Positions 11,840 to 12,191 of a DNA stretch of 14,611 nt are shown piece by piece (the first letter of the stretch is position 1; each line of letters starts with the position of its first letter). Source of the DNA: Escherichia coli (lineage in GTDB: Bacteria > Pseudomonadota > Gammaproteobacteria > Enterobacterales > Enterobacteriaceae). Position numbers and translations under genes: made by a program. The DNA is taken from assembly GCF_003334255.1 (NCBI RefSeq), contig NZ_QOWU01000079.1. One strand, written 5' to 3'. Under the pieces are notes generated by a model, which did not search any database, was not told the DNA's origin, and worked only from the letters and a program-made list of their open reading frames with translations.

Positions 11840-11861
11840 CCCGCCGCCTGGCGGGTTTTTT
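11840..11861 (+). terminator. intrinsic terminator (stem CCCGCC/GGCGGG, loop GCCT, T6), candidate tR'
   Basis: Seen directly 61 nt after the Q stop. Confidence 0.65.
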
Positions 11862-11983
11862 ATGACTGAAATCGCATCAGTACAGTAAACGTGCTGGTGG
11901 TGGTGAATACCGGTCTTTCAGCTTGCTGGCTTTTTCGACAAGAGTTATTGGTGTGTCACGTTAACCGGAAAAGGGAAAAAGAC

Positions 11984-12181
11984 ATGCTAAAACAGCAGGA
12001 TATGACAGAAACCGCCAGAGTGGTGTTTAATGAATTAAGTGCCACCGAACCGGCGACAGTCGGGGAGATTGCGCAGAATACTTACCTTTCACGCGAACGC
12101 TGCCAGTTAATACTGACCCAGCTGGTTATGGCGGGTCTGGCAGACTATCAGTTCGGTTGTTACAGACGCCTTCCGCAGTGA
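11984..12181 (+). CDS. small winged-helix-like protein (65 aa), possibly FaeA/PapI-like
   Basis: ATG 11984 with AAGGGA 7 nt upstream; the track's upstream extension begins over the terminator and is rejected; HTH-like segment ATVGEIAQNTYLSRERCQLILTQLVMAGL; flanked by intrinsic terminators. Confidence 0.5.
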   Translation: MLKQQDMTETARVVFNELSATEPATVGEIAQNTYLSRERCQLILTQLVMAGLADYQFGCYRRLPQ

Positions 12182-12191
12182 AGGCTTTTTT
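12168..12191 (+). terminator. intrinsic terminator (stem GCCTTC/GAAGGC, T6) overlapping the stop of the 65-aa gene
   Basis: Seen directly. Confidence 0.65.

Follow-up and report, generated by a model that had tools for sequence, protein, structure and literature searches.

The translation of mom in phage Mu is unlocked by Com, a zinc-finger RNA-binding protein, and the transcription of mom needs the activator C and Dam/OxyR. In restriction-modification systems, the controller (C) proteins are Xre-type helix-turn-helix dimers that bind C-box operators and govern the restriction enzyme. To our knowledge, M.EcoGII is the only well-characterised adenine methyltransferase that is fully non-specific, and it is widely used as a reagent. 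M.EcoGII is prophage-borne, silent in lysogens and deleterious if expressed constitutively (PMC5778455), its natural control in the prophage being unexplained beyond this silence. No mention of a gene upstream of M.EcoGII was found in PMC5778455 or PMC7544214, from both of which the word 'upstream' is absent, and none was seen in PMC11551740. In lambda and the Stx phages, a constitutive late promoter is terminated just downstream until Q is made (PMC7547250).

The locus described here lies in a prophage of Escherichia coli, within a stretch of 14,611 nt that was analysed as a whole and is referred to as the window. It consists of a 65-codon gene, located between the antiterminator gene Q and an esterase gene of the nanS-p type, whose relatives in other phages are found next to methyltransferases of the M.EcoGII type.

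The small gene behind Q

The features of the region, all on the + strand, are as follows.

11387-11779, +: antiterminator Q gene, 130 aa (phrog_79, 'anti-termination protein Q-like', E = 9e-48)
11786-11836, +: candidate late promoter (PR') block, with -35-like CCGCAA at 11786-11791, a 17-nt spacer and -10-like TAAGAG at 11809-11814
11837-11861, +: intrinsic terminator 1 (tR'-like), a nine-pair hairpin and U-run
11893-11900, +: Chi octamer GCTGGTGG, within an optional insert of ~45 nt that follows terminator 1 and precedes the conserved 5' UTR
11912-11949, +: conserved 5' untranslated block CTTGCTG-N12-AGAGTTA-N6-TGTCAC, from comparison of 23 loci
11971-11976, +: Shine-Dalgarno sequence AAGGGA, 7 nt before the ATG and kept across loci
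11984-12181, +: gene for the 65-aa predicted winged-helix protein (WP_000917742.1; PHROG 331)
12168-12191, +: terminator 2, hairpin and U6, overlapping the stop codon; where the module is intact, it forms the first helix of the leader between the two genes
12192-12221, +: leader remnant (first 30 nt), containing AATGGGCGGCTGG at 12202-12214 and a Chi octamer at 12210-12217
12212-12226, +: deletion junction, within the short repeat GCTGGTGG(C)GGGTGT
12336-12541, +: full-length STnc100 sRNA gene (Rfam RF02076; 143 bits, gathering score 47), which has a terminator of its own (12511-12530)
12765-14611, +: DUF1737/SASA-family esterase gene (nanS-p type), running past the window end

Read along positions 11780 to 12800, the end of Q is followed by a hairpin with a T-run, a Shine-Dalgarno sequence, the 65-codon ORF and a second hairpin with T6. 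A preliminary description of this DNA had reported a short gene with its own ribosome-binding site, flanked by terminators directly after Q and neighboured by nanS-p, and this anatomy is confirmed, coordinates included. An identical locus in RefSeq carries Q as 'antiterminator Q family protein', with its start at TTG 11384. The esterase gene, which begins 583 nt after the stop codon of the small ORF, is a 'SASA family carbohydrate esterase' in RefSeq and matches phrog_143 (E = 5.7e-287). The STnc100 gene is a neighbour of the winged-helix/methyltransferase module described below and not a part of it. STnc100 has been tied to PasD prophage sRNAs and associated with esterase genes (2026 preprint).

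Further elements were noted beside this region. On the - strand, a strong terminator (12549-12570, eight pairs and T7) and a promoter-like site (12743-12771) would bracket an RNA of ~190 nt, antisense or divergent to the start of nanS-p, for which no Rfam match was found and whose fold is no better than that of shuffles (z = -0.5). Elsewhere in the window, Rfam matches to isrK (5250-5326, +, 58.9 bits) and to the P1-type C4 antisense RNA (5351-5438, +, 80.7 bits) fall inside a 382-codon ORF at 4890-6038, a Rha-family regulator in RefSeq; the start of this ORF may be set too far upstream, or the RNAs may be embedded in it.

Terminator 1 has the core CCCGCC-gcct-GGCGGG (11840-11855), a stem that extends over 11837-11858 and a T-run to 11861. 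It folds at -15.7 kcal/mol (z = -4.0), as good a value being found in 0 of 200 shuffles, and it was left unlisted by a simple scan, probably because the stem reaches into the T-run. A GC hairpin with T-run, of differing stem sequence, occupies the same place in nearly all of 23 loci, and the SfV record annotates a terminator there. Terminator 2 (GCCTTC-cgcagt-GAAGGC and T6) was found by the scan and is weak by itself (z = -1.0). Its stem shows compensatory change across genera, with both sides altered in four of six pairs, and its U-tract occurs only in the Escherichia/Shigella group, other genera keeping the stem without it; the element may serve as a helix of the leader no less than as a terminator. 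Terminator-like sites overall numbered 6 in 1.6 kb, as compared to 1.5 expected.

In a consensus scan of the + strand from 11300 to 12900, no sigma-70-like promoter was called, so that Q-dependent late expression can reasonably be inferred. Within the 57 nt that separate Q from terminator 1, the candidate PR' block is conserved directly 5' of the terminator in loci of the same Q type, and it is kept even where other genes have been inserted after Q, as in phiP27 and Stx2a_WGPS2. The scan did not call this block, so PR' is inferred rather than located. Of the earlier proposal that the gene is expressed only when Q antiterminates, the terminator after Q and the missing promoter call are thus observed, and the dependence on Q itself is the step taken from them.

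The ORF runs from the ATG at 11984 to the TGA at 12179-12181 and encodes 65 aa (MLKQQDMTET...YRRLPQ), and its Shine-Dalgarno sequence is kept as AGGnAAAAAGACATG in 23 loci. A longer reading from a GTG at 11891 (96 aa) was dropped as wrong, because the region upstream of the conserved Shine-Dalgarno sequence and ATG contains indels, including the optional insert; many database entries for the small protein are nonetheless 94-106 aa long from such over-long starts. The window, SfV, phiP27, mEp460 and Kluyvera have the insert, and many other loci lack it. In the 5' untranslated block, TTGCTG and GAG.TA are invariant in the 23 loci and ~12 genera; the TTGCTG...GAGTTA block was considered as a sigma-70 promoter and rejected, no -10 element fitting at any reasonable spacing, and the 5' UTR has no Rfam match at gathering or permissive thresholds.

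Compared with SfV, the window ORF carries 19 synonymous and 3 non-synonymous differences, and the median dN/dS across 202 pairs of homologues is 0.30. Prophages of Escherichia, Shigella, Salmonella, Klebsiella, Kluyvera, Citrobacter, Buttiauxella, Mixta, Erwinia, Providencia, Mangrovibacter, Hafnia and Proteus encode homologues of 63-68 aa, whose frame and length are stable over ~12 genera at 40-55% identity; the conservation in related prophages that the preliminary description had raised as a check is therefore present. The family is narrow, with 65 representatives at E <= 1e-3 in a search of 1.84 billion cluster representatives, and the few long proteins returned by that search are multi-stretch, low-complexity-like matches (fusion candidates). 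Conservation at the nucleotide level does extend to the 5' end of the ORF and to the non-coding blocks on either side, as would be expected if the ORF were spurious and the conserved entity were DNA or RNA (terminators, leader) encoding no protein. That reading is scarcely credible and is already contradicted by the excess of synonymous change and the low dN/dS, by the frame and length kept over ~12 genera at such low identity, by the conserved Shine-Dalgarno sequence and by a confidently predicted protein fold. By these patterns of substitution, the small ORF is a genuine gene, beyond chance.

The fold was predicted by AlphaFold2 from a 23-sequence alignment (pLDDT 93, pTM 0.80), with the elements H1 (9-16), b1 (24), H2 (26-33), H3 (37-49), b2 (53-56) and b3 (59-62). 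The topology H1-b1-H2-H3-b2-wing-b3 and a high similarity to solved winged helices place the modelled protein in the winged-helix superfamily, as a small, stand-alone and canonical member. Its structural neighbours include the dimerisation domains of SAM-dependent O-methyltransferases, RPA32C and the N-terminal domain of MotA. Conservation is focused on the N-terminal nonapeptide MLKQQDMTE, on helix 3 (CQLILTQLVMAGL) and on the C-terminal strand, which is basic; winged helices usually bind nucleic acid through the face made up of helix 3 and the wing.

Pfam gave winged-helix matches below threshold only (TrmB at 1.3e-3, MarR_2, HTH_24 and DprA_WH), and no NCBIfam model reached its cut-off. The TrmB name that RefSeq gives to some copies was rejected, as PF01978 scores only 19 bits (i-Evalue 1.3e-3, with none at E <= 0.001) and the TrmB architecture is ruled out for a 65-aa protein without the second (C-terminal effector) domain. 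The preliminary description had proposed a small DNA-binding protein of the FaeA/PapI type, of which the winged-helix fold stands and the family does not: FaeA (PF04703) is absent from the Pfam matches up to E = 10, PapI is in none of the sequence or structure match lists, no preferential closeness in sequence or structure was seen, and the gene lies in the late region of a lambdoid prophage, between Q and the lysis genes, not at a fimbrial phase-variation switch. The window gene should thus carry neither a PapI/FaeA-like nor a TrmB-family host-regulator annotation. What the protein does match is PHROG 331, of unknown function (E = 2.4e-37; residues 1-64 align with positions 35-98 of a 111-position profile), the surplus profile positions corresponding to over-long annotated starts. 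Among defence and anti-defence families, PADLOC gave no match better than E = 1e-3. Neither the protein accessions nor phrog_331 were found in the literature searched, in which a described function for the family, and its pairing with M.EcoGII and a structured leader, appear to be unreported.

Partnership with an M.EcoGII-type methyltransferase

In phiP27, Stx2a_WGPS2, SfV, mEp460, phiNP of Citrobacter, Hafnia phage yong2 and phage 1720a-02, a recurrent gene order is found, namely Q, a terminator, the small ORF, ~150 nt of spacer and a methyltransferase of ~350 aa. Downstream of the methyltransferase lies either a holin gene or tRNAs, stx and nanS-p. The methyltransferase begins 150-155 nt after the small ORF in ~70 of the best 80 IMG/VR loci, and the pair is present in 21 of 24 species-representative loci (one genome per species) from ~12 genera, behind Q genes of at least four different families, the module being independent of the type of Q. 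In the reverse direction, with the methyltransferase as the anchor, the small ORF was found ahead of it in all 77 viral loci whose upstream sequence was long enough, so that the enzyme travels with a small winged-helix gene and a covarying leader of fixed length. A contiguous pair, directly behind Q, occurs in 2014 of 5426 complete E. coli genomes (~37%), and in several Stx2 phages it lies 5' of stx. The small gene is thus a near-obligate upstream partner of the M.EcoGII-type methyltransferase, and the intact module comprises a terminator, a conserved 5' UTR, the winged-helix gene, a leader of ~150 nt and a 349-aa methyltransferase of the M.EcoGI/GII type. The commonest E. coli variant of the enzyme is 95% identical (333/350) to the M.EcoGII sequence given in the supplement of PMC11551740. 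A restriction endonuclease gene was seen in none of the loci inspected.

This order bears on the suggestion that the gene occupies the position of stx in Stx phages as a piece of independent cargo. It is only loosely right as to position: in the Stx phages that carry the gene, the order is Q, small gene, methyltransferase, tRNAs, stx and nanS-p, the small gene coexisting with stx and lying 5' of it. The true cargo slot is further downstream, after the tRNAs, where IraM is found in O55:H7 DEC5B and stx in Stx phages. With a near-obligate methyltransferase partner, and with its position ahead of that slot, the gene does not qualify as independent cargo. Moron status, in the sense of an autonomous cargo gene, was likewise rejected: a downstream terminator is present, but there is no promoter of its own and the relatives co-inherit the methyltransferase.

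The spacer between the two genes (for example, 3696-3844 in SfV, locus L004, and 1263-1412 in locus L060) was compared among 59 distinct sequences, and is 142-154 nt long in 57 of them. Its 13-nt core AATGGGCGGCTGG is invariant in 23 of 25 aligned spacers, with a single-base variant each in Mixta_m and Prov_s. No conserved frame for an ORF or leader peptide was found in the spacer, stops being scattered in all frames, and Rfam gave no match at gathering or permissive thresholds. A structure was derived by hand and tested against slid controls and 500 shuffles. It consists of the hairpin at the ORF end, a 12-pair hairpin (P1) that includes the Chi octamer, a helix that segment 2 forms with segment 3, and a nested P3. 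In these helices 80.9% of cells are paired, as compared to 28-45% in slid controls; both partners have changed in 14 pairs, and the observed score was reached by none of the 500 shuffles. An alternative pairing joins segment 1 with segment 2, and segment 3 with the 20 nt before the methyltransferase ATG; this pairing, which covers positions -1 to -20 of the methyltransferase start, has 92.5% of cells paired against 26-40% in slid controls, with compensatory changes in Erwinia and Providencia. The two pairings are mutually exclusive, and one of them covers the start of the methyltransferase gene, at whose ATG no Shine-Dalgarno sequence is evident. Four divergent genera have a different 3' part of the leader. 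From this covariation the leader looks like a translational switch, and the spacer is a candidate for a new cis-regulatory RNA.

The small gene itself exists as two alleles, represented by SfV (L004, 3501-3695) and mEp460 (L005, 3001-3204), that are 56% identical in DNA and 55% in protein and lie between flanks that are 86-97% identical. The points of exchange are the conserved 5' end and the helix-3 region. Among the 77 methyltransferase-anchored viral loci, 27 are of type A and 50 of type B, and the two alleles are anciently diverged. The leaders and methyltransferases of SfV and mEp460 are 94-97% identical, and therefore the surfaces that vary between the alleles cannot be those that recognise the module. 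Positive selection between A and B was considered and rejected, pN being below pS even in the variable segments, with both near saturation.

The truncated arrangement in the window

The window has no methyltransferase gene such as intact modules carry 142-154 nt after the small ORF. All of the module-specific flanks are nevertheless in place (11837-11861, 11912-11949, 12168-12191 and 12192-12221), the last of these matching the sequence directly 3' of the small ORF in every methyltransferase-bearing locus, which identifies the window locus as a truncated derivative of the module. To the left of the junction, the window has the sequence that follows the small ORF in intact modules; from ~12212 rightwards, it matches a sequence ~870 nt downstream of the methyltransferase in L030, L016, L037 and others, where two tRNA genes and a 118-codon ORF precede it. 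Nothing but GCTGGTGG(C)GGGTGT, with the Chi octamer inside, is common to the two arms. As read from these alignments, a deletion between two short Chi-containing repeats took the methyltransferase, the tRNAs and the cargo slot together with all of the leader except its first 30 nt, with the result that the winged-helix gene stands alone, joined directly to the STnc100/nanS-p region.

The Chi octamer GCTGGTGG is abundant in this DNA, with 13 sites in 14.6 kb (nine on the + strand and four on the - strand) as compared to 0.65 expected from shuffles. Two of the sites flank the small ORF, and the downstream one sits in the conserved leader hairpin and in the deletion junction; this Chi-containing hairpin is a site at which the pair is broken. 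A different rearrangement was observed in locus L047 (4195-4455): inside the same hairpin (GGCGGCTGGTGGGGGGGCGACACC...), its sequence gives way to unrelated DNA that has no methyltransferase, which suggests that the leader hairpin is a recurrent point of recombination.

Junctions of the window type were found in 195 of 5426 E. coli genomes, a minority. The ORF at these loci is identical to that of the window or is an allele that intact modules also have, with no decay, and the loci sit behind different Q regions; the arrangement is therefore recent and has either spread or recurred. An intact orphan ORF fits either a recent deletion or an independent function.

The second of these possibilities recalls the earlier proposal of a host-directed transcription regulator, of the PapI/FaeA kind or another, that prophage induction switches on and that is itself the cargo gene. 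A winged-helix fold and a position in the late operon are compatible with such a role, as is the persistence of the gene, intact and behind more than one type of Q, in 195 E. coli genomes without the methyltransferase, and two ancient alleles could track a variable external target. Set against this are the lack of any FaeA/PapI signal in sequence or structure, the lack of a promoter of its own, so that the product would be made only minutes before lysis, the methyltransferase linkage that is near-obligate in both directions, and the status of the orphan as a minority, recent derivative with identical ORFs. A host-directed role is thus quite improbable, and the linkage points to a function internal to the module.

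Two other genes of the prophage deserve mention. A PerC-family transcriptional regulator, so named in RefSeq, is encoded in the prophage early region (window 7532-8026, +; L001 1753-2247), and if any gene of the prophage acts on the host as a regulator, this one is a better candidate than the 65-aa gene. In strain 2012EL-2448, which carries the same prophage, a 311-aa DNA methyltransferase gene outside the window (L001 11475-12410) lies in the lysis cassette, between the lysozyme and spanin genes, its product being 25% identical to the M.EcoGII type. The prophage that has lost its M.EcoGII-type enzyme therefore still has another late methyltransferase.

Role of the small protein and comparison with known systems

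A two-way linkage to the methyltransferase as tight as that observed points to a role within the module and, taken together with the fixed spacer and the toxicity of the partner, makes such a role the best-supported reading. The gene, its winged-helix fold, the module and the deletion in the window are established by the analysis, and the mechanism is proposed. On balance, it is probable that the small protein serves module-internal control of the expression or activity of a toxic methyltransferase, most plausibly by way of the leader, and that the window copy has been orphaned. The winged-helix gene is the conserved first member of a two-gene module at the head of the Q-dependent late operon in lambdoid prophages of the Enterobacterales, and its product would be made only once Q reads through terminator 1. 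In the intact module, the leader can fold so that the methyltransferase start region, without a Shine-Dalgarno sequence, is sequestered, and the small protein would control expression or activity of the enzyme. In the window the protein would have lost its target and would probably be a recent, still intact remnant. As the presumed target is gone, the window gene is most simply regarded as a stranded remnant, and the message of the window itself is accordingly the more modest one of a module leftover.

Several observations bear against control of this kind. The tie between the protein and either the leader or the methyltransferase is drawn from linkage rather than from direct computation. Most family members are acidic (pI 4.6-6.0), which is unusual for a nucleic-acid binder and speaks against the controller reading, and most have two Cys. 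When two copies were modelled as a tandem fusion with AlphaFold2, no homodimer was predicted with confidence (pTM 0.44), a weak negative; together with the acidity and the two alleles, it argues against a simple operator-binding regulator.

Alternatively, the small protein may be a protein-protein modulator, a mostly acidic winged helix that binds M.EcoGII and no nucleic acid, and that either guards against leaky expression as an inhibitor or buffer or serves as a subunit that targets or activates the enzyme. The two-way linkage fits this possibility as it does the controller reading, as do the acidity and the lack of a confident homodimer, and the structural neighbours include winged helices that make protein contacts, namely the O-methyltransferase dimerisation domains, RPA32C and the MotA N-terminal domain. 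Moreover, beta-class methyltransferases are dimers with a division of labour (PMC7544214). Recombinant M.EcoGII, however, is fully active and non-specific alone (PMC5778455), two alleles of only 55% identity serve methyltransferases that are 97-98% identical, and the conserved structured leader would be left unexplained; a modulator of this type seems rather unlikely.

The more specific form of the controller reading, which is entertained only tentatively, is that the protein and the ~150-nt leader constitute an undescribed safety switch similar to com-mom, in which the leader hides the start and the small protein, as the first product of that Q-dependent transcript, releases or tunes it. If this were true, the leader would be a new class of cis-regulatory RNA absent from Rfam, and the orphan in the window would be a stranded regulator. 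The controller reading thus offers a testable model for how a phage could achieve a late, genome-wide burst of methylation without poisoning the lysogen.

Of the systems that the locus resembles, the lambdoid PR'-tR'/StxS arrangement (Sy et al. 2020, PMC7547250) is similar in that a terminator directly after Q and PR' gates the downstream genes, but the short terminated RNA would be only ~40 nt here, from a presumptive promoter, and the first gene past the terminator is the winged-helix gene instead of tRNAs and stx. PapI and FaeA share a small size (~65-77 aa) and a winged helix with the protein, but the gene lies in a phage late operon and not in a fimbrial switch, and there is no sequence or preferential structural similarity. 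The M.EcoGI/M.EcoGII prophage locus (Murray et al. 2018, PMC5778455) is the same module, of which the window is a version without the enzyme. Like the C proteins of restriction-modification systems, the gene encodes a small protein of helix-turn-helix type just 5' of a DNA-modification gene, with a presumed control of timing or level; unlike them, it is predicted to be a winged helix with no predicted dimer, no restriction gene accompanies it and no palindromic operator was identified, so that the analogy is looser than that with com-mom. As in Mu com-mom, a small gene (~62-65 codons) lies directly 5' of a late, toxic adenine-modifying enzyme whose start can hide in mRNA structure. The two differ in that Com is a four-Cys zinc finger, whereas the small protein is predicted to be a winged helix with two Cys, and in that mom depends on C and Dam/OxyR, whereas the module here relies on Q antitermination. 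Membership among the C proteins or the Com-like activators is excluded by the fold. Mu com-mom is nevertheless the closest functional analogy, by which RNA binding and translational activation by the small winged-helix protein are suggested as hypotheses.
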